DNA from: Candidatus Nomurabacteria bacterium
Lineage (GTDB): Bacteria > Patescibacteriota > Minisyncoccia > Phycocordibacterales > UBA9973
Reading direction: 5' to 3'
Length of the DNA: 64,000 nucleotides
Assembly (NCBI GenBank): GCA_023267215.1
Contig: JAHFNS010000001.1
Location: forward strand, 98,736-162,735
Shown: positions 1 through 60,601 of the stretch, piece by piece
How the letters are laid out: each line of letters opens with the position of its first letter
Numbering within the stretch: the first letter of the stretch is position 1
Translations under genes and position numbers: made by a program
Notes under the pieces: model-generated
What the model was told of the DNA's origin: nothing
The model's input: only the letters and a program-made list of their open reading frames with translations
Database searches by the model: none

Positions 1-518
1 AAATTTTTGAGCTTTTAGAAGAGGGGAAGAATCTAGCATTAGTTTCAGATGCTGGTACTCCGACTATCTCTGACCCTGGAGCAATGCTTATTTCTAAAAT
101 AAAAGAAAAGTTTTCCCAGAAGACGGTCTTCGGGGAAGAACCCCGAAGACCGTCTTCTGGGGTAGAAGTTATTCCAATTCCTGGAGCTTCTGCAGTTATT
201 GCTGCACTTTCTGCTTCTGGACTTCCAACGCATGAATTCACATTTCTAGGATTTCTTCCACACAAAAAAGGAAGAGAAACTTTATTTAAAGAAATTGCTG
301 AATCAAAACGCACAATGGTTTTCTATGAATCCCCACATCGCATTTTAAAAACATTAGAATCCTTAAATAAATTTTGTCCAAATAAAAAAGTTTGTATTGC
401 TCGCGAAATCACTAAGATTTATGAAGAGTTTAAAACAGGTACACCACAAGAACTTTTAGAATATTTAAAAAAAAATCCCGTAAAACAAAAAGGGGAGTTT
501 ACAGTATTAGTTTCTTAA
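1..518 (+). CDS. rsmI: 16S rRNA 2'-O-methyltransferase RsmI, C-terminal part (5' end lies outside window)
   Basis: Frame 3 is open from the window edge. Translation gives LEEGKNLALVSDAGTPTISDPG ... VIPIPGASAV ... FYESPHR, typical RsmI motifs. Track ORF 84..518 is the internal-Met tail. Carries an in-frame 48-bp palindrome at 115..162. Confidence 0.85.
   Translation, partial: IFELLEEGKNLALVSDAGTPTISDPGAMLISKIKEKFSQKTVFGEEPRRPSSGVEVIPIPGASAVIAALSASGLPTHEFTFLGFLPHKKGRETLFKEIAESKRTMVFYESPHRILKTLESLNKFCPNKKVCIAREITKIYEEFKTGTPQELLEYLKKNPVKQKGEFTVLVS
115..162. repeat. family A GC-rich palindromic element, copy 1 (in rsmI, in-frame)
   Basis: cccagaagacggtcttcgggg-aagaa-ccccgaagaccgtcttctggg. Perfect 21-bp inverted arms. 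Confidence 0.8.
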
Positions 519-4855: not shown

Positions 4856-5944
4856 ATGAACATATTGATTTTTATAATAATTTTATTAGTTTTGGTGCTT
4901 GTTCATGAATTTGGGCATTTTTTTACTGCTAAAAGATTTGGTATTAGAGTAGATGAATTTGGTTTTGGTTTTCCTCCAAAATTATTTGGTATAAAAAAAG
5001 GGGAGACAGAATATAGTATTAATCTTCTACCAATTGGTGGATTTGTGAAAATTTTTGGCGAAGATCCAAACGAAGAAAATACAGTAGGACCAGATGCTGC
5101 TAGGAGTTTTGTAAATAAACCAAAATATAAACAAGCAATAGTTCTTTTCGCTGGAGTCTTTGCGAATTTTTTACTTGCTTGGCTTTTGTTTTCTATTGGT
5201 TTTATATCAGGACTTCCTACTTCTGTTGGTAGTGAGCCGAAAGATTATAAAATGGAGAATGTGCATCTTGTTGTTCTTTCTGTTTTGCCAAATTCTCCAG
5301 CTCTAGCTGCTGGTCTAAAAACCGGAGATAAAATAGTTTATATAAAAAGTGGAGATGCTGTCACAGATCAAATCAGCCCTGAGACTGTCAAATCTTTTGT
5401 TGCTTTAGGTAAACAATTAGACATGGCATATCTTCGTGGCAATGACCCGACTTATAATATGATCCAGGTTATTCCAAAAGATACTAATGGTACTTATGCA
5501 ATAGGTATTTCTATGGATCAGATAGGGACCGTTAAATTGCCCTTTTTTAATGCCTTTTGGGAGGGTTTAAAATTAGACTGGTCTGTTACAGAAGGTACTG
5601 TTGTGGGGCTTTATACGCTCATTGTAGGGGGTATTATGGGTAAAGGAAGCTTTGCGAACGTTACTGGTCCTGTCGGAATGGTGGGTATCGTAGGTAATGC
5701 GTATCAATTTGGTTTTGTATATTTATTCTCTTTCGCTGCTTTAATTTCAGTGAATTTGGCGATAATAAATCTGATTCCATTTCCAGCCCTAGATGGTGGT
5801 CGTCTCTTCTTTTTACTTATTGAAAAAATAAAAGGTTCTCGTATGAATCCTAAATTTGCAAATACTGCAAACATGGTGGGCTTTGCAATTTTAATTATTC
5901 TCATGCTTCTTGTCACTTATCATGATGTAGTTAAATTATTTTGA
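4856..5944 (+). CDS. rseP: RIP metalloprotease RseP (site-2 protease, M50) with PDZ domain
   Basis: HEFGHFFTAKRFG (HExxH) in TM1, PDZ-like LAAGLKTGDKIV, C-terminal LDGG motif (ALDGGRLFF). Confidence 0.85.
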   Translation: MNILIFIIILLVLVLVHEFGHFFTAKRFGIRVDEFGFGFPPKLFGIKKGETEYSINLLPIGGFVKIFGEDPNEENTVGPDAARSFVNKPKYKQAIVLFAGVFANFLLAWLLFSIGFISGLPTSVGSEPKDYKMENVHLVVLSVLPNSPALAAGLKTGDKIVYIKSGDAVTDQISPETVKSFVALGKQLDMAYLRGNDPTYNMIQVIPKDTNGTYAIGISMDQIGTVKLPFFNAFWEGLKLDWSVTEGTVVGLYTLIVGGIMGKGSFANVTGPVGMVGIVGNAYQFGFVYLFSFAALISVNLAIINLIPFPALDGGRLFFLLIEKIKGSRMNPKFANTANMVGFAILIILMLLVTYHDVVKLF

Positions 5945-6003
5945 CCTCACCTAGAGCCCCTCTCCTTAATAAGGAGAGGGTGGCCAAAGGTCGGGTGAAG
6001 TGT
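5945..6003. repeat. family B palindromic element, copy 1 (intergenic rseP / Cys-rich gene)
   Basis: gacctcacc-tagag-cccctctcctt-aat-aaggagaggg-tgg-ccaaaggt-cgggtgaagtg. Core has perfect 10-bp arms around aat. Confidence 0.7.
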
Positions 6004-6007
6004 ATTT

Positions 6008-7726
6008 ATGAAATCAGAAACTAAAACATGTCAGAATTGCAAACAAGACTTCACTATCGAGCCAGAAGATTTTAATTTTTATGAAAAAATAAAAGTTCCA
6101 CCACCGACATTTTGTCCAGAATGTAGAAGACAAAGACGTTTTGTTTGGCGAAATGAACGGGTGTTATATCGTCGTACTTGTGGTTTATGTAATAAAAATG
6201 TTATTGCAATATATCACGAATCTTCACCTTTTCCTGTGTATTGTCGAGAATGTTGGTATGGAGATAAATGGGATCCTACTTCTTATGGTAGAGAGTATGA
6301 TATGTCTAAATCATTTTTTGAACAATATAAAGAATTATCTAATGTTGTTCCAAGATTGGCTATGTGGCAAAGAAATTGTATAGATTCAGATTACTCAAAT
6401 ATGGCTGGAGAATCAAAAAATGTTTATTTATCTGTTTCGGTTGTAAAAAATTCAGAAAATATTTTTTATTCAAAATCCGTAGATAAATCAAAAGACATTG
6501 TAGATTGTTTAAATATTATAAATGGATCTGAAAGTTTATATGAAAATGTCGAAGCACAGAGTAATTATAATTCACAATATCTTTTATTATGTAGAAGTTG
6601 TATGGATTCTTATTATTTGGTTGATTGCGTAAATTGTAGTAACTGTTTTTTGTCTTATAATTTAAGGAATAAACAATTTTGTATAAACAACAAAGAATAT
6701 AAAAAGGAAGATTATTTTAGAGAGGTAGAAAAGTTCAATTTAAAAAGTAGAGCTTCTCGTCAAGTTTTATTAAAAAGATTTGATGAGATAAAAAAGAAAT
6801 CCATTTATCGTTTTGGAAATATTAATAGGTGTGTGAATGTTACAGGCAACAATCTTTTAAATGTTAAAAATGGTAAAAGTTGTTTTGAAATTTATAACAT
6901 AGAAAATGTAAAATATTGCTATAGAGCTTTTGATATTAAAGATTCTATGGATTTTGACTATGGCGGATGGTCAGAATTACTTTATGAATATACGACAGGT
7001 GCGTTACATGATTACAATGTTAAGTTTAGTTATTCCGCAATGGATTCTGTGAGAAATGCTGATTATACAGAATCTTGTAGAAATTGTTCTAATATTTTTG
7101 GTTGTATTTCTCTCGTAAACACAGAAAATACAATATTAAATAAGGTTTATCCCGAAGAGGAATACAAAAAACTTCGTGAAGAAATTATCAAACAAATGAA
7201 TGAAGTACCATATATTGATAAAGTAGGTAGGGTTTATAAATATGGCGAATTTTTCCCAATAGAGTTATCACCCTGGGATTATAATGAGACTTTGGCCCAA
7301 GAATTTTTTCCTATTACAGAAGATACTGCGAAAGAAAAAGGATATCCATGGCGTCATTCAAACATAAAAAAATTTGAAATTACAATTACTTCAGAAAAAA
7401 TTTCTGATAATATAGATGACGTCAATGAAAATATTTTAAAAGAAGTTTTAGGATGTGCCCATAAGGGGAATTGTAGTCATCAATGTAATGTTGCTTTTCG
7501 TATAACGGACTATGAATTTAAATTCTATAAAAAACATAACATACCGTTACCTATTTTGTGTTCAAATTGTAGACATTATGAGAGATTCAAAGTTATGCCA
7601 GCATTAGATTTGTGGCATAGAAAATGTATGAAAGAGGGTTGTGATAATGAATTTGAGACAGCTTATGCTCCCGACAGGCCGGAGATTGTTTATTGTGAGA
7701 GATGTTATCAACAGGAAGTGTATTAA
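6008..7726 (+). CDS. large Cys-rich (multi zinc-ribbon) protein of unknown function with duplicated N/C-terminal module
   Basis: 572 aa with many CxxC pairs. N-terminal CQNCKQDFTIEPEDFNFYEKIKVPPPTFCPECRRQRRF recurs C-terminally as CNVAFRITDYEFKFYKKHNIPLPILCSNCRHYERF. Sits between rseP and mraY. Confidence 0.7.
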   Translation: MKSETKTCQNCKQDFTIEPEDFNFYEKIKVPPPTFCPECRRQRRFVWRNERVLYRRTCGLCNKNVIAIYHESSPFPVYCRECWYGDKWDPTSYGREYDMSKSFFEQYKELSNVVPRLAMWQRNCIDSDYSNMAGESKNVYLSVSVVKNSENIFYSKSVDKSKDIVDCLNIINGSESLYENVEAQSNYNSQYLLLCRSCMDSYYLVDCVNCSNCFLSYNLRNKQFCINNKEYKKEDYFREVEKFNLKSRASRQVLLKRFDEIKKKSIYRFGNINRCVNVTGNNLLNVKNGKSCFEIYNIENVKYCYRAFDIKDSMDFDYGGWSELLYEYTTGALHDYNVKFSYSAMDSVRNADYTESCRNCSNIFGCISLVNTENTILNKVYPEEEYKKLREEIIKQMNEVPYIDKVGRVYKYGEFFPIELSPWDYNETLAQEFFPITEDTAKEKGYPWRHSNIKKFEITITSEKISDNIDDVNENILKEVLGCAHKGNCSHQCNVAFRITDYEFKFYKKHNIPLPILCSNCRHYERFKVMPALDLWHRKCMKEGCDNEFETAYAPDRPEIVYCERCYQQEVY

Positions 7727-36454: not shown

Positions 36455-37462
36455 TCAAATTTTTTTTAAAAAATCACGAATTATTTTTTCTACTTCTTTA
36501 GAATTTTCTGTCTCCATTAATTTTGCACGTAATTCTTTCGCACCAGGAAAATCATTTACATACGCTTTGAAATGTTTTTTCATGACAGCAAAACTTTTAT
36601 GTTTTGGTATCGCAAGCTCTTTATCAAAAAGTTGAGTGTGTTCCATGAGAACTTCTAGTTTTTCTTCTACCCTCTCCTTTTCAAGGAGAGGGGTTGGGGG
36701 TGAGGTGAATACCCAAGGATTTCCAAAAACTCCCCTACCTATCATTATTCCATCACAACCATACTTTTCTGCTTTCTCTTCCGCATCTTTTAAATCTTTA
36801 ACATCACCATTGCCAATGAGCAAAATATCTTTGCCACTTTTTTTAATAAGCTCTTTTATTTTTTTAATGTAATCCCAATTTGCAGGAACGAGAGATAATT
36901 CTTTTGTTGTTCGTAAATGAATCGTCAAAGCAGAAATATCTTCCTTTAATAATTCTGGTATCCAATTATCAATATCTTCCCTATTGAAACCAACTCTCGT
37001 TTTGACAGACACTGGGATATGAAGCCCTGCAGATTTTATTCCAGCATGAGCAGCCTGTATTATTTTTCTAGCAAGTTGTGGTGTCTTTATCAAACCCGAG
37101 CCAGCACCTTGAGCAACGACAGATTTGTCTGGACAACCCATATTTATATCTATTCCATCAAAACCGAGACTAGCAATATAACTACAAGCTTTTTCCATAT
37201 TCTCCGGGTTAGCACCGAAAACTTGAGCGATGATAGGTCTCTCAGCTTCAGAATATTTTAAAATGTGAGAAAGTTTCTTTTTGGCGAGTTTATTACACAA
37301 GCCATCAGCCGCCACAAACTCTGTCCAGAAAACGACGCTGTTTCTATTTTCTCTGTTCTTACTATATTTCGCCAAGATACGACGAAAAGCAATGTCAGTG
37401 ACATCCGACATCGGTGCAAGGCAGAAAAATGGTTTTTTAAGTTTTCTCCAGAAATTTTGCAT
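36455..37462 (-). CDS. tRNA-dihydrouridine synthase (DusB-like)
   Basis: FCLAPMSDVTDIAFRRI, MIGRGVFGNPWVF, TIM-barrel FMN motifs. Carries an in-frame palindromic element (TSPPTPLLEKERV) right after GNPWVF. Confidence 0.85.
   Translation of the reverse strand: MQNFWRKLKKPFFCLAPMSDVTDIAFRRILAKYSKNRENRNSVVFWTEFVAADGLCNKLAKKKLSHILKYSEAERPIIAQVFGANPENMEKACSYIASLGFDGIDINMGCPDKSVVAQGAGSGLIKTPQLARKIIQAAHAGIKSAGLHIPVSVKTRVGFNREDIDNWIPELLKEDISALTIHLRTTKELSLVPANWDYIKKIKELIKKSGKDILLIGNGDVKDLKDAEEKAEKYGCDGIMIGRGVFGNPWVFTSPPTPLLEKERVEEKLEVLMEHTQLFDKELAIPKHKSFAVMKKHFKAYVNDFPGAKELRAKLMETENSKEVEKIIRDFLKKI
36655..36725. repeat. family B palindromic element, copy 3 (inside dus, in-frame)
   Basis: ttcacctcaccccc-aa-cccctctcctt-ttc-aaggagaggg-tagaggaaaaa. 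Read in-frame as FTSPPTPLLEKERVEE on the minus strand. Confidence 0.7.
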
Positions 37463-39826: not shown

Positions 39827-40687
39827 ATGAAAATTCAAAAGCTCCCCAAAAATAAATTTCCGAAAGCATTATTAGAAATTCCACAACCACCAGAGCAGCT
39901 TTACATTATTGGCGAATTGCCAAAAGAAAATTTGATTTATTTATCTGTCGTCGGTTCTCGTAAATTTACTTCTTATGGAAAAGATATTTGTGAAAAAATA
40001 ATCGCAGGATTGAAAGGGTATCCGATAGCTATAGTTTCTGGCTTCGCTATAGGCATAGATACAATATCTCATAAAAAAGCAATGCAAGTAGGTTTAAAGA
40101 CAATAGTTTTTCCTGGATCAGGACTTTCTGATGAAGCGATTTATCCAAAAACAAATGTACGACTAATGAGAGAAGTAGTAGAAAATGGTGGCTGTCTAAT
40201 TTCAGAATTCGAACCAGATTTCAAAGCGACTCAGTGGAGCTTCCCTATGCGTAACAGACTCATGGCTGGTATTTCAAAGTCTGTACTTATTATAGAAGCC
40301 GAAGAAAAGTCTGGCACGCTCATCACCGCTCGCTTGGCCACAGAATACAATAGAGATGTGCTTGCAGTGCCTGGCTCTGTATTTTCATCAAGTTCAAGAG
40401 GTACCAATAAATTGATCAAGCAAGGAGCGACTCCAGTATCTTCGGCGGAAGATGTGCTCGAAGCTCTCGGATTCGAAATCAAAAAAGATGAAAGCAAACA
40501 AGCAAAACTTTTTGCTGACTTGTCTCCCGAAGAGAAAAAAGTAATAGATCTACTTCGTGAACCAATGCCTCGTGATGATTTGATTCGTGCAATGAAAATG
40601 CCGACACCGAATGCAAACGCCATCATCTCCATAATGGAAATAAAAGAATTAATTAAAGAAGAATTAGGCGAGATACGATTAGCATAA
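39827..40687 (+). CDS. dprA: DNA processing protein DprA (Smf)
   Basis: VVGSRKFTSYGKD...IVSGFAIGIDTISHKKAM...FPGSGL Rossmann-like DprA core plus C-terminal winged-helix-like tail. Confidence 0.85.
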   Translation: MKIQKLPKNKFPKALLEIPQPPEQLYIIGELPKENLIYLSVVGSRKFTSYGKDICEKIIAGLKGYPIAIVSGFAIGIDTISHKKAMQVGLKTIVFPGSGLSDEAIYPKTNVRLMREVVENGGCLISEFEPDFKATQWSFPMRNRLMAGISKSVLIIEAEEKSGTLITARLATEYNRDVLAVPGSVFSSSSRGTNKLIKQGATPVSSAEDVLEALGFEIKKDESKQAKLFADLSPEEKKVIDLLREPMPRDDLIRAMKMPTPNANAIISIMEIKELIKEELGEIRLA

Positions 40688-41507: not shown

Positions 41508-43781
41508 ATGAAATTACTCATTGTTGAATCACCATCAAAAGCAAAGACTATAGAAAAATATTTAGAAGGCGCATACACAGTGCGTGCTTCTATTGGACAT
41601 ATTCGTGATTTACCTAAATCAAACAAACAAGCGATAGATATCGAAGGTGGTTTCATTCCACATTATGAAATTTCAAAAGGTAAAGAAAAAGTTGTTCATG
41701 AACTTCAATCACTCGGAGAAAAAGCCACAGAGATATTGTTAGCGACAGACCCCGACCGTGAAGGAGAAGCTATAGCTTGGCATATAGAAGAACTTTTAAA
41801 GAAAGATAAAAAAATAAAAGCTAAAGCGAAACGTGTGACATTCCATGAAATAACAAAGGAAGCCGTAGAAGAAGCATTGAAACATCCTCGAAACATAGAC
41901 ACTGCTTTGAGAAAAGCTCAAGAAGCAAGACGTGTCCTCGACAGACTCGTAGGATATGATCTGTCTGGTTTGATATGGAAAAAAGTACGCTATGGACTCT
42001 CTGCAGGACGTGTTCAATCCCCTGCACTCCGCATAATAATGGAACGCGAAAGAGAAATCCGTGCTTTTGTGCCAGAGAAATATTGGAGAATATTAGGACT
42101 TTTTGAAACACCCAAAAAAGGAAAACTTACTTTAAATTGTTCTATTGAGCCAAGAGATGAAAAAGTTGTAGAAAAAATAATGGAAGAAGGCAATAGTAAA
42201 GATTGGTTTGTAACTGATGTCAAAGAGGGAGAGCAAAAGAGAGTTCCTCGTGCTCCGTTCACTACTTCCACATTACAACAGACAGCGAGCTCTCGCCTTG
42301 GATATTCCCCTTCTAGGACAATGCAAATAGCTCAAAAACTTTATGAAGCTGGACATATCACATACATGCGTACAGATAGTACAAATTTATCTCTTGTCGC
42401 TCAATCACAGATAGTTTCTATGATTGAAAAAAAATATGGGAAAAATTTTGCACAAGCAAGAATTTATAAAACAAAATCAAAAAATGCCCAAGAAGCACAC
42501 GAAGCTATTCGCCCAACTCATATAGAAAATATGTTGGCTGGCACAGATGAACAACAAAGACTTTATAGATTAATCTGGGAGCGTGCTGTTTCTTCACAAA
42601 TGGCAGATGCGAAATTATTGAAGACAAAAATAAGTGCGAATATAGCTTACAGCCCCAAAGACGGTCTTCGGGGAGCTCCCCGAAGACCGTCTTTGGGGCA
42701 ATTCGAATTCCCAGACTTCACAGCTGTCGGTTCCAGAATTCTTTTCTCTGGTTGGCTAGAAGTTGATAGAGATAGTGTCGGAGAAGATTTTGAATTACCA
42801 GAAGTAAAGAAGGGAGACAAATTAAAATTGTTAAATCTCGTTAATGAAGAAAAATTTACCGAACCACCAAATAGATATAGTGAAGCAGGCCTCATTAAAG
42901 AACTCGAGGCACGAGACATAGGTAGACCTTCTACTTATGCTTCCATAATGAAAACATTGGAAGACAGAGAATATGTCAGGAAAGAAGGCAAAACTCTATT
43001 CCCTACAGACGTCGGTGAAGTCGTGTCAGACTTCTTAGAAAATAATTTTGCAAATTATATCTCTGATACATTCACAGCTGAGATGGAAGACGAGCTAGAT
43101 GAAATATCTCGTGGTGAACGTGAATACGAAAAAACATTAAAAGATTTCTATGGACCATTCTTAAAAGAAATAAAAATAAAAGAAAAGTTAGAAAAAGCGA
43201 CAAATTTAGGAGAAGCACCAGAAGGTATAGTGTGTCCAAAATGTGGCAGTAAAATGATAGTGAAGCTTTCTCGTGCAGGAAAATTCTATTCTTGTATTAA
43301 ATATCCAGATTGTGACGGAGCCCTTATGATAGACGGTACAGAATTGAAAGGTCCAAAAGAAACTGGTGAGATGTGTCCCCAATGTGGACATAAGAGTGGA
43401 GGAAAAAAAGGAAATGGGGGTGGAGGAAAATTGATCATACGCGAGAGACGTGATGGCACTGGCACATTCATTTCTTGTTCTCGTTATCCAAAATGTAAGT
43501 TCATAAAAAAAGACGAAGCAGAAGAAGCAAAAAAAAGAACTGGGGTTATCTGTCCAACTTGCAAAAAAGGAGATATTTCTGAGCGCAAAGGAAGATTTGG
43601 AGTATTTTATTCCTGTTCAAACTATCCTGATTGTAAATTTGCAATTAAAGCAAAACCCACTGGTAAAACATGTGATAAATGTGGATCTTTAATGATGCAA
43701 GGTACAAAAACTATCCCTGATAGATGCAGTAATAATACATGTTTAAATTATCGACCTGATAAATTAAATAAAATTAAATAA
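41508..43781 (+). CDS. topA: DNA topoisomerase I with C-terminal zinc-ribbon repeats
   Basis: MKLLIVESPSKAKTIEKYLEG...GHIRDLP (TOPRIM), active-site region HITYMRTDS, four CxxC...CxxC zinc ribbons at the C-terminus. Carries an in-frame 46-bp palindrome at 42653..42698. Confidence 0.9.
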   Translation: MKLLIVESPSKAKTIEKYLEGAYTVRASIGHIRDLPKSNKQAIDIEGGFIPHYEISKGKEKVVHELQSLGEKATEILLATDPDREGEAIAWHIEELLKKDKKIKAKAKRVTFHEITKEAVEEALKHPRNIDTALRKAQEARRVLDRLVGYDLSGLIWKKVRYGLSAGRVQSPALRIIMEREREIRAFVPEKYWRILGLFETPKKGKLTLNCSIEPRDEKVVEKIMEEGNSKDWFVTDVKEGEQKRVPRAPFTTSTLQQTASSRLGYSPSRTMQIAQKLYEAGHITYMRTDSTNLSLVAQSQIVSMIEKKYGKNFAQARIYKTKSKNAQEAHEAIRPTHIENMLAGTDEQQRLYRLIWERAVSSQMADAKLLKTKISANIAYSPKDGLRGAPRRPSLGQFEFPDFTAVGSRILFSGWLEVDRDSVGEDFELPEVKKGDKLKLLNLVNEEKFTEPPNRYSEAGLIKELEARDIGRPSTYASIMKTLEDREYVRKEGKTLFPTDVGEVVSDFLENNFANYISDTFTAEMEDELDEISRGEREYEKTLKDFYGPFLKEIKIKEKLEKATNLGEAPEGIVCPKCGSKMIVKLSRAGKFYSCIKYPDCDGALMIDGTELKGPKETGEMCPQCGHKSGGKKGNGGGGKLIIRERRDGTGTFISCSRYPKCKFIKKDEAEEAKKRTGVICPTCKKGDISERKGRFGVFYSCSNYPDCKFAIKAKPTGKTCDKCGSLMMQGTKTIPDRCSNNTCLNYRPDKLNKIK
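42653..42698. repeat. family A GC-rich palindromic element, copy 2 (in topA, in-frame)
   Basis: ccccaaagacggtcttcgggg-agct-ccccgaagaccgtctttgggg. Perfect 21-bp arms, near-identical to copy 1. Confidence 0.8.
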
Positions 43782-46438: not shown

Positions 46439-46522
46439 GCCCAGGTGGCGGAATTGGTAGACGCGATAGACTCAAAATCTATTGGTGGCAACATCATGAG
46501 AGTTCGATTCTCTCCCTGGGCA
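46439..46522 (+). tRNA. tRNA-Leu (anticodon CAA)
   Basis: GCCCAGGTGGCGGAATTGGTAGACGCGATAGACTCAAAATCTATTGGTGGCAACATCATGAGAGTTCGATTCTCTCCCTGGGCA. Long variable arm, anticodon loop CU-CAA-AA, GTTCGATTC T-loop. Confidence 0.85.
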
Positions 46523-46527
46523 CAAAT

Positions 46528-47856
46528 ATGCCAAAAATGAAAGTACAATCAAATAGTTCTATTGATTTTGAAGTAAACGGCGGAAAAAAGTTAAGCGGAA
46601 CAATAAAGACTAATTTTTCTAAAAACGGCTCTGTTGGGCTTCTTTGTGCTTCCCTTTTAAATAAAGGAAAAACGACCTTGCACGGTATTGCTCGCATTGA
46701 AGAAGTTTATAGAGTGATAGAAATATTGGAAAGCATAGGAGTGAAAATCAATTGGATAAATCAAAACTCTATTCAAATAATTCCTCCCGTAAAATTTAAA
46801 CTAGAAAATATAAATGTTGAATCAGCGGTAAAGACTCGCTCCGTCGTGATGCTTATGGGCCCGATGATTCATTTCTTAAAATCTTTTTCTCTCCCTCATG
46901 CACAAGGCTGTAGCCTAGGCAAACGCACTATTGCTGCTCATACTTATGCCTTAGAAGACCTTGGAATAAAAATAAAAACGACAAATACGAGTTACGAAGT
47001 AAGCACTAAAAAAATAAAACCAGCTGATATTGTGATGTATGAATCTGGAGATACAGCCACTGAAAATATTTTACTTGCTTCCGCTTTAATTTCAGGTATT
47101 ACCAAAATATCTTTTGCTAGTCCTAACTACATGGTACAAGAAATTTGTTTCTTTCTTGAAACTTTAGGTGTACAAATAGATGGAGTTGGCACTTCTACGC
47201 TAACTGTGCATGGAATAAAAGAAATAAACAAAAATATTGAATATTGGAATAGTGAAGACCCTATTGAATCTATGATGTTTATTGCTGCTAGTATTATTAC
47301 TGACTCACATCTCACTATCACCCGAGTGCCTATAGATTTCTTGTCTCTTGAAATGGAAAAACTAAAAAGAATGCATTTAAAATACAAAATTTCAAAAATT
47401 TATTATTCTTATAACGGCAGAACAAAATTGGTAGATATTGAAATCTTTCCTAGTAAATTAAAAGCCTTAGAGGATAAAATCCACGCAAATCATCCAGGGA
47501 TAAATATAGACAATCTTCCCTTCTTTGTACCTATCGCTATAAAAGCACAAGGTCAAACGATGATTCATGATTGGTTTTATGAAGTACGTATGATATATAT
47601 GAATGAATTAAATCGTCTTGGGGCAAATGTTACTCTTGCCGACCAACACCGTCTCTATATTCAAGGTGGAACACCTCTCAAACCTGCACAAATCGTCTGT
47701 CCTCCAGCTCTTCGTCCCTCTATGGTTATACTTATTTCCATGCTTGGAGCTCCCGGCACATCCATTCTTCGCAATGTATATATGATAAATCGTGGCTATG
47801 AAGAAATAGCAAAACGTCTAAACTCCATTGGCGCCGACATTAAGATTTTAAAATGA
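46528..47856 (+). CDS. murA: UDP-N-acetylglucosamine 1-carboxyvinyltransferase MurA
   Basis: EPT/EPSP-synthase fold. N-terminal KLSGTIKTNFSKNGSVGLLCASLL, 442 aa. Stop overlaps miaA start. Confidence 0.8.
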   Translation: MPKMKVQSNSSIDFEVNGGKKLSGTIKTNFSKNGSVGLLCASLLNKGKTTLHGIARIEEVYRVIEILESIGVKINWINQNSIQIIPPVKFKLENINVESAVKTRSVVMLMGPMIHFLKSFSLPHAQGCSLGKRTIAAHTYALEDLGIKIKTTNTSYEVSTKKIKPADIVMYESGDTATENILLASALISGITKISFASPNYMVQEICFFLETLGVQIDGVGTSTLTVHGIKEINKNIEYWNSEDPIESMMFIAASIITDSHLTITRVPIDFLSLEMEKLKRMHLKYKISKIYYSYNGRTKLVDIEIFPSKLKALEDKIHANHPGINIDNLPFFVPIAIKAQGQTMIHDWFYEVRMIYMNELNRLGANVTLADQHRLYIQGGTPLKPAQIVCPPALRPSMVILISMLGAPGTSILRNVYMINRGYEEIAKRLNSIGADIKILK

Positions 47857-48794
47857 ATACACCTCACCCTAACCCTCTCCTTAATAAGGAGAGAGGAAAA
47901 ATCTTACCAAAGGTTATTGTGATATTAGGCTCAACAGCTACTGGAAAGAGTGACCTAGCTGTTAAAATTGCCAAAAAAATCAATGGAGAAGTTATTTCAG
48001 CTGATTCTAGACAAGTCTACAAAAGTCTTGATATAGGCACAGGTAAAATAAGTAAAAAAGAAATGAAGGGTATCCCTCATCATTTGCTCGATGTCGTAAA
48101 TCCAAAGAAAAAATTTACAGTCGCAGAATATCAAAAGAAAGCAATCCACGCCATGGCTCTGATTGTAAAAAAAGGCAAAACTCCCATAATTTGCGGAGGC
48201 ACGGGATTTTATATTGATGCTATTACCAAAAGCACCGTTTTTCCTGAAGTTCCACCGAATTTAAAATTAAGAAAAACTTTAGAAAAAAAATCAGCTCTAG
48301 AGCTTTTTAAAATGTTAATGAAATTAGATAAAAGACGTGCGAAAGATATAAAAGATAAAAATGAAATAAATAATAAAGTCAGATTAATAAGAGCAATAGA
48401 GATAGTTAAAGCTATCGGTAAAGTTCCAAAATTACAAAGTGACACAAACTCTGCCATGGCAAAAAATGTGTCACTATATGAGTTTATAAAAATTGGATTA
48501 TATTTATCGCCAGATGAATTAAAAAAGAAAATAGAAAAAAGAGTTAAAAAAATGTTTAAAGATGGATTGTTGAATGAAATAAAAAAATTAAAGAAAGCAG
48601 GAATATCCGAAAAAAGATTAAAAGAGTTTGGTTTTGAATACGATTCCCCTACTTATGAAAAAGTGGTGAAAGAAACCATAAAATACACCAAACGCCAAAT
48701 GACTTGGTTTAAGAGAGATAAAGAAATTAAATGGATTGATGCCTCAACACAAACAAATTTAGAAAAAATAATTAATGATTTACAAAAGGATTAA
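47853..48794 (+). CDS. miaA: tRNA dimethylallyltransferase MiaA
   Basis: P-loop GSTATGKSDLAVKIAK, DSRQVYKSLDIGTGK, HHLLDV. N-terminal 22 residues are encoded by a palindromic element. An in-frame GTG at ~47919 is an alternative start. Confidence 0.85.
   Translation: MNTPHPNPLLNKERGKILPKVIVILGSTATGKSDLAVKIAKKINGEVISADSRQVYKSLDIGTGKISKKEMKGIPHHLLDVVNPKKKFTVAEYQKKAIHAMALIVKKGKTPIICGGTGFYIDAITKSTVFPEVPPNLKLRKTLEKKSALELFKMLMKLDKRRAKDIKDKNEINNKVRLIRAIEIVKAIGKVPKLQSDTNSAMAKNVSLYEFIKIGLYLSPDELKKKIEKRVKKMFKDGLLNEIKKLKKAGISEKRLKEFGFEYDSPTYEKVVKETIKYTKRQMTWFKRDKEIKWIDASTQTNLEKIINDLQKD
47858..47915. repeat. family B palindromic element, copy 2 (5' end of miaA)
   Basis: acacctcaccctaa-ccctctcctt-aat-aaggagagagg-aaaaatctta-ccaaaggtt. 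Shares cctcacc, the core palindrome and ccaaaggt with copy 1. Confidence 0.7.
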
Positions 48795-56531: not shown

Positions 56532-56801
56532 TTAAAATTTATATCCTTCAGATTTTAAAATTCTTTTCTTTTTATCCGGCCCCCGATTGTATCCACCAAG
56601 CCCTCCATCAGAACGAATGACTCTATGGCAGGGAATTTTAGGGTTGTGATTTCTATTTAAAATATTCCCAACTGCCCGACTCGCTTTTATATTCCCTGCT
56701 CTCCTCGCCACTTCCTTATACGTCAAAACTTTTCCTTTTGGAATTTTCTTAACAACTTCATATACTTTTTCTGAAAAAGATTTCATATCTAGAATATTCA
56801 T
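56532..56801 (-). CDS. MGMT-family protein (methylated-DNA-protein-cysteine methyltransferase DNA-binding domain only)
   Basis: VPKGKVLTYKEVARRAGNIKASRAVGNILNRNHNPKIPCHRVIRSDGGLGGY, i.e. PCHRV active-site motif in an 89-aa stand-alone C-terminal domain. Confidence 0.75.
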   Translation of the reverse strand: MNILDMKSFSEKVYEVVKKIPKGKVLTYKEVARRAGNIKASRAVGNILNRNHNPKIPCHRVIRSDGGLGGYNRGPDKKKRILKSEGYKF

Positions 56802-56825
56802 CCCAACAAACTCCAGTTTGTAAGG
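56801..56825. promoter_or_regulatory. palindromic operator-like motif (copy 1 of 3), cccaACAAACTccAGTTTGTaagga
   Basis: Abuts the MGMT start codon. The same 14-16 nt palindrome recurs at ~58881..58904 and ~59214..59238. Confidence 0.45.
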
Positions 56826-56838
56826 ATATTAATAATAC

Positions 56839-57084
56839 TTAATCTTCAATTATTAAAAGTTTACTTTCGCTTTGATGCCCGTTTATGATGCGTATTTTGG
56901 AAAATGGAAGTTTAAAATGCAAAGAAAGAAGCTCTATCACTCGCTTATTGGCTAAATTACGCTCAGCTTTTTCTTTGACAGAAACTAAAAAATGATCTTC
57001 CGATTTTTGTTTCAGAGATTCCTTTTTCGCCTTAGTTGCAACTTTCACATGAATGTATTTCATTTTATTAAAACCAAATCTCAA
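56839..57084 (-). CDS. DUF167 (YggU-like) protein, copy a
   Basis: YIHVKVATKAKKESLKQKSEDHFLVSVKEKAERNLANKRVIELLSLHFKLPFSKIRIINGHQSESKLLII matches the DUF167 pattern. Probable start MKYIHV. Confidence 0.6.
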   Translation of the reverse strand: MRFGFNKMKYIHVKVATKAKKESLKQKSEDHFLVSVKEKAERNLANKRVIELLSLHFKLPFSKIRIINGHQSESKLLIIED

Positions 57085-57463
57085 TAGTAATTAAAATATC
57101 TATGCCATCATAAAGATTTTCCTGAAAGCGGATTTGTTTTTTGAGAGGCAAAATGTATGTCGGAGAATACCAATCCGGGAAAATAGAAGTCGTCCACTCC
57201 GTCTTCTTTATCTTCGCCTTGGCATAGACAGCTCCGAACCCTCTCCTCAGCTTCCCCTTCTGCATTTCCCTAATCTTCGCCGAAATATCCTCCGGCACCC
57301 GCGCAAATCTCCAAGCCGAATCTTTTTCGCTCTTGTCATACCCGTATACCCAAACAATAACCTTACTCTTAAACCTAAAAGTCCCTCTTATCTTCCCTTT
57401 TCTAATTTTTTTAGTTTTAGATTTTAGATTCTTTGGCATTAATTTTCCATACTCCTTTTTCAC
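57068..57463 (-). CDS. DUF1905 family protein, copy a
   Basis: FRFKSKVIVW...AWRFARVPEDISAKIREMQKGKLRRGFGAVYAKAKIKKTEWTTSIFPDWYSPTYILPLKKQIR matches the DUF1905 beta-barrel pattern. Lys-rich N-terminal extension. Confidence 0.6.
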   Translation of the reverse strand: MKKEYGKLMPKNLKSKTKKIRKGKIRGTFRFKSKVIVWVYGYDKSEKDSAWRFARVPEDISAKIREMQKGKLRRGFGAVYAKAKIKKTEWTTSIFPDWYSPTYILPLKKQIRFQENLYDGIDILITIEIWF

Positions 57464-58304
57464 GAAAAGCTGGGATTGTTTGACGTCTAGCCATATTAAT
57501 CAAACTGGCTAAAGATTGTAAATTTTTCTTTGCATATTCTGCCAGAGTTATTATTTCGGCACCCTTTAAATATGCAATTCTTTTATTTAGACTTTCAGAA
57601 AGAGCTAAATATAAAACTTGTTCCATTTCTTTTGTTGATTTTTTAACTTTAAAATTTGAAAAAGTTTTGTAATATATATGCTTTTCTTTATCACGAATAA
57701 TAATATTCGGATAACCAAATTCTTGAAGCTGTAAATTAATAAGGACACGACCGATACGCCCATTACCGTCACAAAATGGATGAATATGTTCAAATTCTAA
57801 ATGAAAATAAGCTATTTTTTTAAAAATATTTATATCATGATCTGTTTTATAATCATTCAATAATACTTCTACCATTCTCATGACATGTTCTGGTGCAGGT
57901 GCAATATGGTTACTGACTCTAACAAATTCACCTGCTTTTCTAAATCTACCAGCAATAGAATCATCTATTCCACCGATAAGTAAGCTATGAATAAAAAGAA
58001 CCGTTTCTTGGTTTAAGACGATGCTATTTTTTTTTGCTTTTATATATTCATAAACTCGAGCTAAATTTTTTGCTTCAAAAACCTCACGGAGTGAATAATT
58101 TTTGGAAACTTCCAAATCTAAAAGAATCTTCTCTGTGTCTGGAAGAGTGAGTGTTGAATTTTCAATTGCATTTGAGTTGTATACGGATTCAGCAAGCTCT
58201 ACTTCGTCTAAAACTGTCAAAAGAGACTCTTTCCCCTTTTTTAGAGAATCAAGAGACTTTTTTAAATTTATTATATTTTGAAACTTCTTATTTACTTTAT
58301 TCAT
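57417..58304 (-). CDS. Fic/DOC-family protein (class II-like, internal inhibitory motif)
   Basis: Fic motif HPFCDGNGRIGRVLINLQL. N-terminal SNAIEN fits the (S/T)xxxE(G/N) inhibitory-helix motif. Confidence 0.8.
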   Translation of the reverse strand: MNKVNKKFQNIINLKKSLDSLKKGKESLLTVLDEVELAESVYNSNAIENSTLTLPDTEKILLDLEVSKNYSLREVFEAKNLARVYEYIKAKKNSIVLNQETVLFIHSLLIGGIDDSIAGRFRKAGEFVRVSNHIAPAPEHVMRMVEVLLNDYKTDHDINIFKKIAYFHLEFEHIHPFCDGNGRIGRVLINLQLQEFGYPNIIIRDKEKHIYYKTFSNFKVKKSTKEMEQVLYLALSESLNKRIAYLKGAEIITLAEYAKKNLQSLASLINMARRQTIPAFREKGVWKINAKESKI

Positions 58305-58420
58305 AAATATATACTTATAGTATAGTCTATTTACTGTTTATTGTCAAGTAAAACGTAAATATGAGGTAAAAACAGCCTATATTTACGTTTTTTAATTTTA
58401 ACCTTTAAATTCTTTGGCAT

Positions 58421-58864
58421 TTATTTATCAAACTGACTAACCCAAAATATTTTTTTATCTTTTAACCATTTTAGTATCTGTTTCTTTAATGCAATTGGGT
58501 AAATTTTTTCTTTCATAAATTGCTCTTTGGAAAATAGAGCAAATTCAATATGGCCTTCTTGGCTTTTTGTTTTAATCTTTTTTACTTCTGTTTTAAATAC
58601 TAAATTTATTTCGTGACGTCTTTGCCCTTCTTCTATATAAATATTATCAGCAACACCAATAAAGGTTATTTTCTTTACTTCTATATTTAATTCTTCCTTA
58701 AATTCACGTTTAATCGCTTTTTCTATTTTTTCATTAAATTCTAAATGCCCACCTGGTAAAAAATAGTTACCATGTTTCTTACTCCTACAAATTAATATTT
58801 TATTATTATCAAAAACAACAGCTCGAATAATAACCTCAACTATATTTTTATATTTATATTTCAT
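58421..58864 (-). CDS. NUDIX hydrolase
   Basis: Nudix box GGHLEFNEKIEKAIKREFKEELNI. Confidence 0.7.
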   Translation of the reverse strand: MKYKYKNIVEVIIRAVVFDNNKILICRSKKHGNYFLPGGHLEFNEKIEKAIKREFKEELNIEVKKITFIGVADNIYIEEGQRRHEINLVFKTEVKKIKTKSQEGHIEFALFSKEQFMKEKIYPIALKKQILKWLKDKKIFWVSQFDK

Positions 58865-58880
58865 ATTTTTATATTCATCC

Positions 58881-58904
58881 TTACAAACTCCAGTTTGTAA
58901 GGAT
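58881..58904. promoter_or_regulatory. palindromic operator-like motif (copy 2), ccttACAAACTccAGTTTGTaagg
   Basis: Perfect 11-bp inverted arms. Lies between the NUDIX start and the ArsR-like stop. Confidence 0.45.
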
Positions 58905-58905
58905 G

Positions 58906-59193
58906 TTAATTAAACTGTTGAAATGATTTTAAAAAGTTAACAAACATTTTACCATATGGAGATAAAGTGTGTTCGACAAACTTACCTTTATATCTTTTAT
59001 TAACTAATCCTGCTTGATGAAGTCTTCGAGTGTGTTCACCTATTGTTTTTGGATTTGCCTTAAGCGTATCAATAATATCATCGAGAGTTATCCCATTTTC
59101 TTTTTGTACAAGGAGCAATATCTCAATGCGATAGTGATTTGCTATCCCTTTTAGATGTCGCTCCATTTGTTTTGCTGTTTTTATTTTTGCCAT
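58906..59193 (-). CDS. ArsR/SmtB-family HTH transcriptional regulator
   Basis: Start taken at MAKIKTAKQMERHLKGIANHYRIEILLLV. wHTH ...TIGEHTRRLHQAGLVNKR. Track ORF extends upstream over the palindrome. Confidence 0.6.
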   Translation of the reverse strand: MAKIKTAKQMERHLKGIANHYRIEILLLVQKENGITLDDIIDTLKANPKTIGEHTRRLHQAGLVNKRYKGKFVEHTLSPYGKMFVNFLKSFQQFN

Positions 59194-59213
59194 ATTTATA
59201 TTATATACTACAT

Positions 59214-59238
59214 CCTTACAAACTCCAGTTTGTTGGGG
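59214..59238. promoter_or_regulatory. palindromic operator-like motif (copy 3), ccttACAAACTccAGTTTGTtgggg
   Basis: ~20 nt upstream of the proposed ArsR-like start, suggesting autoregulation. Confidence 0.45.
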
Positions 59239-59251
59239 TGTTAATTTGATA

Positions 59252-59623
59252 TTAGAACCAGATTTGGATTGAGATTGAGATTTGGATATCATCATAAAGA
59301 TTTTCCTTGTAACGGATTTGTTTTTTGAGAGGCAAAATGTATGTCGGAGAATACCAGTCTGGAAAAATTGAAGTCGTCCACTCCGTCTTCTTTATCTTCG
59401 CTTTGGCATAAATAGCTCCCCATCCCCGTCGTGGCTTCCCTTTCTGCATCTTTTTAATCTTAGCCGAAATGTCCTCCGGTACCCGAGCGAATCTCCAAGC
59501 ACTATCAATATTCTCCCTATTAGTACCGTAGCTCCAAACAATAACTTTACTTTTGAATTTGAAAATCCATTTTATTTTGCTTTGACTAATTTTTTTAGTT
59601 TTAATATTTAAATTCTTTTGCAT
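59252..59623 (-). CDS. DUF1905 family protein, copy b (paralog of 57068..57463)
   Basis: AWRFARVPEDISAKIKKMQKGKPRRGWGAIYAKAKIKKTEWTTSIFPDWYSPTYILPLKKQIRYKENLYD is almost identical to copy a. Underlying DNA is also near-identical over more than 130 nt. Confidence 0.6.
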   Translation of the reverse strand: MQKNLNIKTKKISQSKIKWIFKFKSKVIVWSYGTNRENIDSAWRFARVPEDISAKIKKMQKGKPRRGWGAIYAKAKIKKTEWTTSIFPDWYSPTYILPLKKQIRYKENLYDDIQISISIQIWF

Positions 59624-59671
59624 TTTTTAAAAAAATTCATTCATCTTGTATATATTTTTTTAATATATCAT

Positions 59672-59950
59672 TTAATCTTCAATTACCAAAAGCTTACTTG
59701 GGCTTCTGTGGCCATTTATGATTCTTGTTTTTGACACAGGTATTTTGAAATGAAGAGAGATGAGTTCCAACACTCTTTTATTAGCTAAATTACGCTCGGC
59801 TTTTTCTTTGACCGAAACTTCAAAATGATCCTCAGATTTTTGCTTAAAGGATTCTTTTTTCATTCCAGCCATAACTTTTACGTGAATGTATTTCATTTTA
59901 TTATTTACTTTTTCAATGCAATTGGGTAAATTTTTTCTTTCATAAATCAA
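59672..59950 (-). CDS. DUF167 (YggU-like) protein, copy b
   Basis: MKYIHVKVMAGMKKESFKQKSEDHFEVSVKEKAERNLANKRVLELISLHFKIPVSKTRIINGHRSPSKLLVIED, paralog of 56839..57084. Confidence 0.6.
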   Translation of the reverse strand: MIYERKNLPNCIEKVNNKMKYIHVKVMAGMKKESFKQKSEDHFEVSVKEKAERNLANKRVLELISLHFKIPVSKTRIINGHRSPSKLLVIED

Positions 59951-60037: not shown

Positions 60038-60601
60038 TTATTTAATACAAGCTGCTTTGGCTGTTGTGAAAGCTGTATTAGCTGCTGTTTTAGCATCTTT
60101 CATAGCTACGACAGCTGCATCCTTTGCAGACTTACGAGCTGCCACGGCTGCTGTTTTAGCATCTTTCATAGCTACGACAGCTGCATCCTTTGCAGACTTA
60201 CGAGCTGCTATAGCTGTTGTCATAGCTGTCTTTTTAGCTGTTGCATTAGTCAAGGCTTTTGCTGCTGCTACAGCTATCGTATAAGTGCTATTAGCATCTT
60301 TAATAGCTCCTGTATAAGTAGTATTTGAAGATTTAACTGCTGTAACATAGGTAGTATTAGCATCTTTTACTGCTGCAGTGTAAGTTTTATTAGCATCTTT
60401 TACCGCTACCTTTTTTGCAGTAGTCGCATCTGCAACACATTTTTTTTGATCAACTGTTAATTTAGTTTTAGAAGTCGGTGCACTTGTTGTCGTTGGAGTA
60501 GTTACGTCAGTAGATGTAGTATTTTCTTGTGCATATGCAAGAGAAGATACAAACAATACACCAACCAACAATGATCCAACAAATAATTTTGATTTATTCA
60601 T
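60038..60601 (-). CDS. secreted Ala/Lys/Thr-rich repeat protein
   Basis: Signal peptide MNKSKLFVGSLLVGVLFVSSLAYAQ. Protein repeats KDANxTYTxAV and a perfect 22-aa tandem AARKSAKDAAVVAMKDAKTAAV x2. Confidence 0.6.
   Translation of the reverse strand: MNKSKLFVGSLLVGVLFVSSLAYAQENTTSTDVTTPTTTSAPTSKTKLTVDQKKCVADATTAKKVAVKDANKTYTAAVKDANTTYVTAVKSSNTTYTGAIKDANSTYTIAVAAAKALTNATAKKTAMTTAIAARKSAKDAAVVAMKDAKTAAVAARKSAKDAAVVAMKDAKTAANTAFTTAKAACIK
60081..60212. repeat. 66-bp perfect tandem duplication inside the repeat-protein gene
   Basis: gctgctgttttagcatctttcatagctacgacagctgcatcctttgcagacttacgagctgc occurs twice back to back (period 66 nt). Confidence 0.6.

Follow-up and report, generated by a model that had tools for sequence, protein, structure and literature searches.

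We have analyzed a stretch of DNA of 64,000 nucleotides (the window, always meaning this stretch at its full length) with a G+C content of about 31%, which belongs, judging by its protein matches, to Candidatus Nomurabacteria (Paceibacterota, candidate phyla radiation). At its murA-miaA junction a copy of a dispersed palindromic repeat, designated family B, lies within the 5' end of the miaA open reading frame (ORF). The repeat is an insertion that is conserved in frame in orthologous genes, no alternative start codon is conserved downstream of it, and the residues that follow it are under constraint at the amino acid level. In the comparison of orthologues the ATG at 47853 is the only conserved start of miaA, and the repeat is most likely translated as a harmless N-terminal addition of 13 residues. 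A first-pass annotation had pointed out the family B element, the overlap of the ATG with the murA stop codon, an in-frame GTG at 47919 and the spacing of an 'aaagg' motif in front of it, and all of these are indeed present. It left two alternatives, an element that supplies an N-terminal extension or one that merely provides spacer and ribosome-binding sequence for a start at the GTG. When the 5' ends of miaA were compared across relatives with and without the element, the upstream ATG alone proved to be conserved as a start, and the conserved extension was the repeat itself rather than a feature independent of it.

The names that had been given to the two genes hold. The miaA translation, which opens MNTPHPNPLLNKERGKILPKVIVILGSTATGKS..., passes the equivalog test for TIGR00174 with 216.9 bits against a cut-off of 148.65, and its P-loop GSTATGKS fits the pattern GxTxxGKS. 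The profile alignments begin at residue 21 (TIGR00174), residue 20 (Pfam IPT) and residue 54 (IPPT). MurA models are the best match of the upstream ORF, with 292.7 bits for NF006873 (cut-off 297) and 284.7 bits for TIGR01072 (cut-off 392.7); both values remain under the curated cut-offs, yet they are far over that for AroA (58 bits). The gene order parB-murA-miaA is kept in orthologous loci.

The 23-nt core of family B occurs at three sites in the window and at none in 100 dinucleotide-preserving shuffles; it is no chance match, and with three copies in 64 kb it is a dispersed palindromic repeat. Its unit consists of a left arm, CACCTCACCC, followed by a hairpin CCCTCTCCTT-NNN-AAGGAGAGGG (Table 1). 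The miaA copy is a half form that occupies codons 3-15 (ACA CCT CAC CCT AAC CCT CTC CTT AAT AAG GAG AGA GGA). Its hairpin alone folds with -12.2 kcal/mol and the 71-nt region with -18.5 kcal/mol (z -3.3), and across the palindromes the folding z-scores range from -2.4 to -4.4. For the full-length intergenic copy the corresponding values are -29.5 kcal/mol and z -4.0. Note that this intergenic copy fills the entire spacer between two genes, starting inside the TGA (5942-5944) of an M50 protease gene and ending 6 nt 5' of the ATG of ORF 6008..7726, which encodes a cysteine-rich protein of 572 aa with no Pfam match.

Table 1. Coordinates of the genes, start codons and repeat copies in the window.
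Feature	Position	Strand	Remarks
murA (UDP-N-acetylglucosamine 1-carboxyvinyltransferase)	46528..47856	+	Pfam EPSP_synthase; best NCBIfam matches NF006873, TIGR01072
miaA ORF, 313 aa, including 13-codon repeat-derived insert	47853..48794	+	TIGR00174, Pfam IPT, IPPT
ATGA start/stop overlap	47853..47856	+	miaA ATG 47853-47855 over murA TGA 47854-47856
39-nt (13-codon) in-frame insertion, family B half form	47859..47897	+	predicted to encode TPHPNPLLNKERG; aligned with the two other window copies
Left arm CACCTCACCC of miaA copy	47860-47869	+	
Spacer TAA of miaA copy	47870-47872	+	
Inner stem CCCTCTCCTT of miaA copy	47873-47882	+	
Loop AAT of miaA copy	47883-47885	+	
Inner stem AAGGAGAGAGG of miaA copy	47886-47896	+	
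Codons 16-21 (K I L P K V)	47898..47915	+	holds 'ccaaaggtt'; AAG GTT also in element-free orthologues
In-frame GTG, Val23 (codon 23)	47919..47921	+	AAGG 5 nt upstream; candidate alternative start, rejected
Full-length family B copy	5943..6002	+	outer arms GACCTCACC / GGGTGAAGT, inner hairpin, mini-hairpin GGCC-AAA-GGTC
Family B half-form copy in tRNA-dihydrouridine synthase (Dus) gene 36455..37462	36670..36707	-	reads TSPPTPLLEKERV
Family A copy in TopA	42652-42699		in frame, ..AYSPKDGLRGAPRRPSLGQF..
Family A copy in RsmI	115-161		in frame, ..SQKTVFGEEPRRPSSGVEV..

The decision between the two start codons comes from orthologous genes. The 120 best MiaA matches were taken as the homologue set, and the DNA of eight insert-bearing and two insert-free orthologues was compared. 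The extension MNTPHP[SN]PLLxKERGK[FI]LPxV (MNTPHPSPLLIKERGKFLPTV and variants) is found in nine of these 120 homologues, all of them Nomurabacteria orthologues, always at the identical position, in the same frame and with shared sequence, while the other 110 open with M[KQ]KxK[VI]IVILG or similar. At the DNA level AAATGAAY, and hence the ATGA overlap with the murA stop, is kept in all eight insert-bearing orthologues. The GTG of the window is found in none of them, as the matching codon reads ATC, GTT, GTA, ATC, GTA, GTA, GTA and ATA, respectively. In five of the eight the interval between element and P-loop contains no ATG, GTG or TTG whatsoever; of the remaining three, two carry a TTG only directly before the glycine, and in the third a TTG precedes Val21 by four codons. 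The first-pass annotation had considered that the GTG would place the start close to the P-loop as in most MiaA proteins, but such a start leaves only three residues before the P-loop glycine, against a minimum of eight among the 120 homologues, and would thus yield a shorter N-terminus than any of them. In an AlphaFold model strand beta1 comprises residues 20-26, and since Val23 lies inside it, initiation at the GTG would delete half of this strand. Solved MiaA chains align with their own residues 3-8 from residues 17-20 of the query.

The reading frame itself provides a second line of evidence. Three independent indels occur in the extension (L005, +24 nt; L007, -24 nt; P0063, +3 nt), all of them multiples of three, an outcome with a chance of about (1/3)^3 if there were no coding constraint. 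Pro19, located 3' of the repeat and 5' of the GTG, is invariant although its codon may be CCA, CCT, CCC or CCG, which argues that it is translated; Asn2 is likewise invariant, encoded by AAT or AAC. Variation that is synonymous only at these two positions points to purifying selection on a protein sequence upstream of the GTG. The possibility that the element is an untranslated 5' leader or RNA structure in the murA-miaA spacer, with MiaA made from the GTG at 47919 or a near-cognate codon and the upstream ORF a longest-ORF artefact, could draw on the in-frame GTG with AAGG 5 nt 5' of it, on N-terminal REP (repetitive extragenic palindrome) insertions elsewhere, which have often been judged non-coding (PMC3733652), and on the conservation of the hairpin at the nucleotide level, as expected of an RNA or DNA element. 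It is nevertheless improbable, as the GTG is missing in every orthologue read and most of them lack a canonical start in the interval, as the product would lose half of beta1, and as Pro19 and Asn2 vary only synonymously while all indels keep the frame.

A further argument for that leader had been the 'aaagg' motif and a 'perfect Shine-Dalgarno' in the element core, yet 35 of the 43 long ORFs of the window show no Shine-Dalgarno match of at least 4 nt. Because this genome barely uses Shine-Dalgarno sequences, both 'aaagg' and 'aaggaga' are uninformative, and the suggestion that the element acts as spacer and ribosome-binding site falls with the GTG. The core AAGGAG in fact lies 9 nt 5' of an ATC, where there is no start codon to which a Shine-Dalgarno sequence could be donated. 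Many starts in the window (for example at 39827, 43836, 32550 and 58304) are closely preceded by an A/T-rich sequence resembling TATAAT, a pattern that suggests leaderless or very short-leader mRNAs.

Both start codons might also be in use, giving a long isoform with the repeat-derived tail and a minor short one, with the hairpin tuning their ratio or the amount of MiaA coupled to murA. Both codons are present in the source genome, the stems are under additional constraint at the nucleotide level, and the hairpin starts about 20 nt 3' of the ATG, at a distance from which a folded segment may influence initiation or elongation. The internal start, however, is unique to the window and truncates beta1, and no regulatory role is required; the hairpin is moreover conserved to the same degree in intergenic DNA and in phyla that are not related, so that its conservation need not concern miaA. 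We consider such dual initiation quite improbable.

The boundaries of the element define what it contributes to the gene. In the other family B copies the left boundary is (C)ACCTCACCC, and because unrelated sequence is found 5' of it, the ATG and codon 2 of miaA are native and outside the repeat, with only codons 3-15 clearly belonging to the element. The N-terminus had been described as encoded entirely by the element, which was too broad, as the insertion of 39 nt lies in frame behind codon 2. The proposed N-terminal extension stands insofar as the sequence evidence favors translation of the insert from the upstream ATG, but an 'element-donated' N-terminus is an overstatement with a start codon that is native. 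The 'ccaaaggtt' likewise has to be taken from the element, as orthologues without the element also carry AAGGTT (K20-V21), which marks it as native; codons 16-21 as a whole are probably native N-terminal residues. A similarity of CCAAAGGT to the mini-hairpin of the intergenic copy is not kept in orthologues. We also considered the KVIV codons as a right arm of the element; they do pair with the left arm (TCAC/GTGA, AACC/GGTT), but this pairing is not kept in orthologues and the assignment was discarded.

In an element-free relative a TAATG overlap at the homologous position is followed by AAA AAA TCT AAG GTT, and the simplest model for the origin of the allele is that 13 codons, the length that the short Dus copy also has, were inserted between M-N and K-[FI]-L-P-K-V. 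Two orthologues show further changes in the insert. At 337-360 of L005 the left arm of the miaA element harbors a nested, in-frame mini-hairpin of 24 nt (CCC GCC TGC CAA TTG ACG GGC AGG), and at about 510-560 of L007 an in-frame deletion of 24 nt has removed the loop and the right arm; it looks as if the two variants had caught the insert while growing and while decaying.

With the window included, 10 of the 120 MiaA proteins carry the insert. They are scattered over a neighbor-joining tree and the closest relatives of the window protein are without it, as evidenced by an identity of 84-87% to the insert-free P0002-P0005 and of 68-75% to the other insert-bearing proteins. Behind this patchy distribution there may be several losses, several gains at one permissive site, or recombination; block-wise identity around the junction gave no recombination signal that would explain it. 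One might further suppose that the insertion has inactivated miaA or is degrading it, a pseudogene in the making whose open frame is fortuitous. The element is selfish DNA, and an unrelated Patescibacteria contig, L250, does contain a miaA with an internal stop, but the ORF of 313 codons in the window is uninterrupted and exceeds the equivalog cut-off for MiaA, and the insert allele is intact in ten divergent lineages (68-75% identity) with a strongly conserved catalytic core. We regard a decaying gene as highly improbable.

An out-of-frame copy would be expected to leave a truncated N-terminus, and none was found in the 120 best full-length homologues. Among fragment matches two proteins have truncated N-termini, P0310 and P0313. 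The former, a MiaA starting 'MILG...', was examined as an out-of-frame case and rejected as a gene-caller artefact in an unrelated split gene. Its contig is L250, where the miaA gene (340-760) seems to be interrupted by an internal stretch that has a stop codon at its end, with a GC-rich palindrome just 5' of the gene; the real ATG lies upstream of the called 'MILG' start and gives MPRQNKKLKLVMILG. A search with the N-terminal 66 residues of the window protein retrieved short fragments only and no further insert-bearing orthologues, and a scan of metagenome DNA for the junction motif AAATGAAYACACCTCAC returned 119 stretches, of which two were true miaA junctions, both already known. Other MiaA proteins (P0068, P0113, P0041 and P0110) have different long N-terminal extensions, with ..RRGFERDGAKTSGFFK..QKIRTGEK.. 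shared by P0068 and P0113, and because of these the murA-miaA junction may have been invaded by further repeat families as well.

Several points weigh against a MiaA that is translated from the ATG at 47853 through the repeat. The evidence for translation comes from sequence comparison, and the orthologues were drawn from called proteins, so that out-of-frame copies could be missed. According to published surveys, a repeat that lies at the 5' end of an annotated ORF is often non-coding, with translation starting further downstream (PMC3733652). The stable hairpin shortly 3' of the start codon could hinder translation, and near-cognate starts at codons 17 and 22 (ATT/ATC) are formally conceivable, though not conserved. 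Finally, in eight aligned orthologues, columns with invariant amino acids are also codon-invariant in seven of nine cases within the element, compared to 6 of 56 downstream (Fisher p = 7e-5). The loop codon varies freely at the same time (AAT, ATT, GCC, ATC, AGT, GTT, GTA). Either the stems are held at the nucleotide level on top of coding, or the element spread more recently than the species diverged; as the stems do not vary, they offer no covariation signal.

For the translated repeat we propose the following sequence of events. A copy of about 39 nt of a dispersed palindromic repeat would have inserted in frame between native codon 2 and the residues preceding beta1. Ribosomes that end translation of murA would re-initiate at the native ATG by means of the ATGA overlap, for which no Shine-Dalgarno sequence would be needed, and then read through the repeat. 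We infer that the resulting MiaA contains 13 additional residues, TPHPNPLLNKERG, that are flexible, solvent-exposed and tolerated, presumably as a neutral peptide. The insert precedes beta1, and residues 1-12 have a model confidence (pLDDT) below 50, as befits a permissive position. On this reading neither the start codon nor any ribosome-binding site of miaA comes from the element, which would be a presumably mobile piece of selfish DNA that persists where the protein permits it, as would family B in the inter-domain linker of Dus and a second repeat, family A, in TopA and RsmI.

The Dus copy offers a case in which a downstream start is no option, as a copy in the middle of a gene cannot avoid translation. 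It directly follows the conserved GNPWVF motif, the frame of its hairpin core agrees with that in miaA (PLL-E-KER in Dus, PLL-N-KER in miaA), and both ORFs are intact and give full-length family matches. Family B is present in the GNPW[FV]F linker of eight of about 100 Dus homologues, all of them intact, and the others are without the insert. Full-length versions in Dus read ...KERVAENRVRS, and L017 holds a full-length copy at the very site occupied in the window. The linker varies in length around a baseline of 7-10 residues. It also appears to be a hot spot (P0121-P0240; window about 36650-36720), with at least three further, unrelated insert families, CQGASLTSTVSKMP..., KRSSPEFFNPEGPT... 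and QKPGFKNLEKPGFGE; in different Nomurabacteria the linker inserts read CQGASLTSTVSKMPxG, KRSSPEFFNPEGPTxTLxGTAKGAG and QKPGFKNLEKPGFGE.

Family A is a perfect GC-rich palindrome of 46-48 nt, CCCCAAAGACGGTCTTCGGGGAGCTCCCCGAAGACCGTCTTTGGGG. When the TopA and RsmI proteins of the window are aligned to the solved E. coli structures, gaps of about 20 and about 16 residues, respectively, fall exactly at the positions of family A. In total, four of the five copies of families A and B in the window are located inside housekeeping genes. Because of this, compact genomes may offer selfish DNA few places to persist other than permissive spots in proteins, and such insertions may seed new protein segments.

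The closest parallel is provided by the Rickettsia palindromic elements (RPEs; Ogata et al. 2000, 2002; summarised in PMC10969869 and PMC3733652), for which copies of RPE-1 at protein N-termini have been reported as expressed (PMC3733652). Like the miaA repeat, RPEs are dispersed palindromes that lie in frame in conserved housekeeping genes and are translated at terminal, linker or surface positions; they are present in some orthologues and missing in close relatives, and several families coexist in the small genome of a host-dependent bacterium. They differ in that RPE-1 measures about 100-150 bp (30-50 aa), in contrast to 39-60 nt (13-20 aa) for the present insert, in that their host is an alphaproteobacterium and the present one belongs to the candidate phyla radiation, and in that they are described as Rickettsia-specific, whereas family B has close sequence relatives in many phyla. 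The likeness is one of function and anatomy, with no sequence relationship apparent. On these grounds we classify the miaA insert as an RPE-like protein-coding palindrome, which would be a new case in the candidate phyla radiation. A literature search found no paper describing such elements in Patescibacteria, an absence that is no proof of novelty.

Other known repeats fit less well. Intragenic REPs with GTAG or CGTC tags (Di Nocera et al. 2013, PMC3733652) are stem-loops of 20-40 bp, sometimes paired, that occur inside genes of several species, and the same paper raises the dilemma of whether an N-terminal copy is coding or the start lies downstream. Family B resembles them as a short stem-loop repeat found inside genes, but its ends are (C)ACCTCACCC / GGGGTGAGGT, and because neither GTAG nor CGTC is present in the aligned copies it is not a REP of this kind. 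The terminal inverted repeats (TIRs) of RAYT-like 'TIRYT' transposase genes share the motif GGGGWSAS (PMC3733652), and the outer arm of family B, GGGGTGAG, fits this motif; the match covers 8 nt and is a weak lead. [quoted passage not shown] Outer inverted arms are found in full-length copies of family B, but its 39-65 nt fall short of the 70-300 bp that are typical of MITEs, and neither the miaA nor the Dus site showed a target-site duplication; for both reasons family B is no typical member of that class. A mis-annotated longest-ORF extension, finally, would share with miaA an upstream in-frame ATG that lengthens the ORF and a downstream in-frame GTG; here, however, the upstream ATG is conserved and position-homologous, while the downstream codon is not conserved and its use truncates the fold.

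The hairpin core extends far beyond this genome. In a scan of one genome per species it was found at at least 120 loci in Cyanobacteria, Bacteroidota, Ignavibacteria, Armatimonadota, Chloroflexota, Nitrospirales, Proteobacteria, several groups of the candidate phyla radiation and a metagenome-assembled genome (MAG) of Bathyarchaeia. Among the matches listed, many copies fall to genomes of Nostoc, Calothrix and Rivularia. Elhai et al. in 2008 reportedly described 'small dispersed repeats' of cyanobacteria that form hairpins and are non-autonomous. For 127 of 138 among the matches listed, CCTCACC/GGTGAGG is present within 40 nt on the expected side, compared to 1.2% of control windows. The composite element with ACCTCACCCC / GGGGTGAGGT flanks is also contained in 41 stretches of predicted viral contigs (IMG/VR, L251-L291), with up to five copies in 7.3 kb (L252); these carriers may be true phages or misclassified Patescibacteria contigs. 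Cultured phage genomes gave no match to the consensus full-length element.

From these data we tentatively suggest, as a possibility well short of a firm assignment, that family B is not specific to one lineage but belongs to one composite hairpin element, built of outer arms ACCTCACCCC / GGGGTGAGGT, of CCCTCTCC...GGAGAGGG as inner hairpin and, in some copies, of a mini-hairpin that varies, whose nucleotide sequence is conserved across phyla, in at least one archaeal MAG and in predicted viral contigs. So wide a range would imply horizontal spread and a trans-acting partner that is itself conserved, such as a RAYT/TIRYT-like transposase or some factor of the host. In gene-dense genomes of the candidate phyla radiation the element and other palindrome families would systematically colonize permissive sites of essential proteins (MiaA, Dus, TopA and RsmI). 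If this is true, these repeats would be a general source of protein insertions in this radiation that has so far gone undescribed. A tblastn search with the sequences of IS200 TnpA and E. coli RAYT found neither near elements in the window or in genome fragments of about 250 loci. Rfam gave no match at gathering thresholds for the whole window, nor at E values up to 10 for the intergenic copy, only tRNAs and noise, and a literature search by the sequence strings GGGGTGAGGT and CCTCACCCC returned irrelevant matches only. The conservation of the stems at the nucleotide level and the sharing of the module across phyla both point to a mechanism of maintenance or mobilization.

For annotation, the longer miaA ORF is the correct call, and repeat-derived N-termini or internal inserts in proteins of the candidate phyla radiation should neither be trimmed nor taken as frameshifts. 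Protein-coding palindromes, described as a peculiarity of Rickettsia, would also exist in another group of host-dependent bacteria with small genomes.

A few observations concern the neighborhood. A tRNA-Leu(CAA) (46439-46528 region) ends 4 nt 5' of the annotated murA ATG at 46528, and MurA profiles align only from residue 14 of this ORF, for which reason the true start of murA may be a downstream methionine. Diverged direct repeats at 56780-59950, 200-250 nt long with 77-82% identity and a spacing of about 2.2-2.8 kb, suggest tandem paralogous genes, and at 60081-60212 a 66-nt unit occurs twice in tandem with 95% identity.

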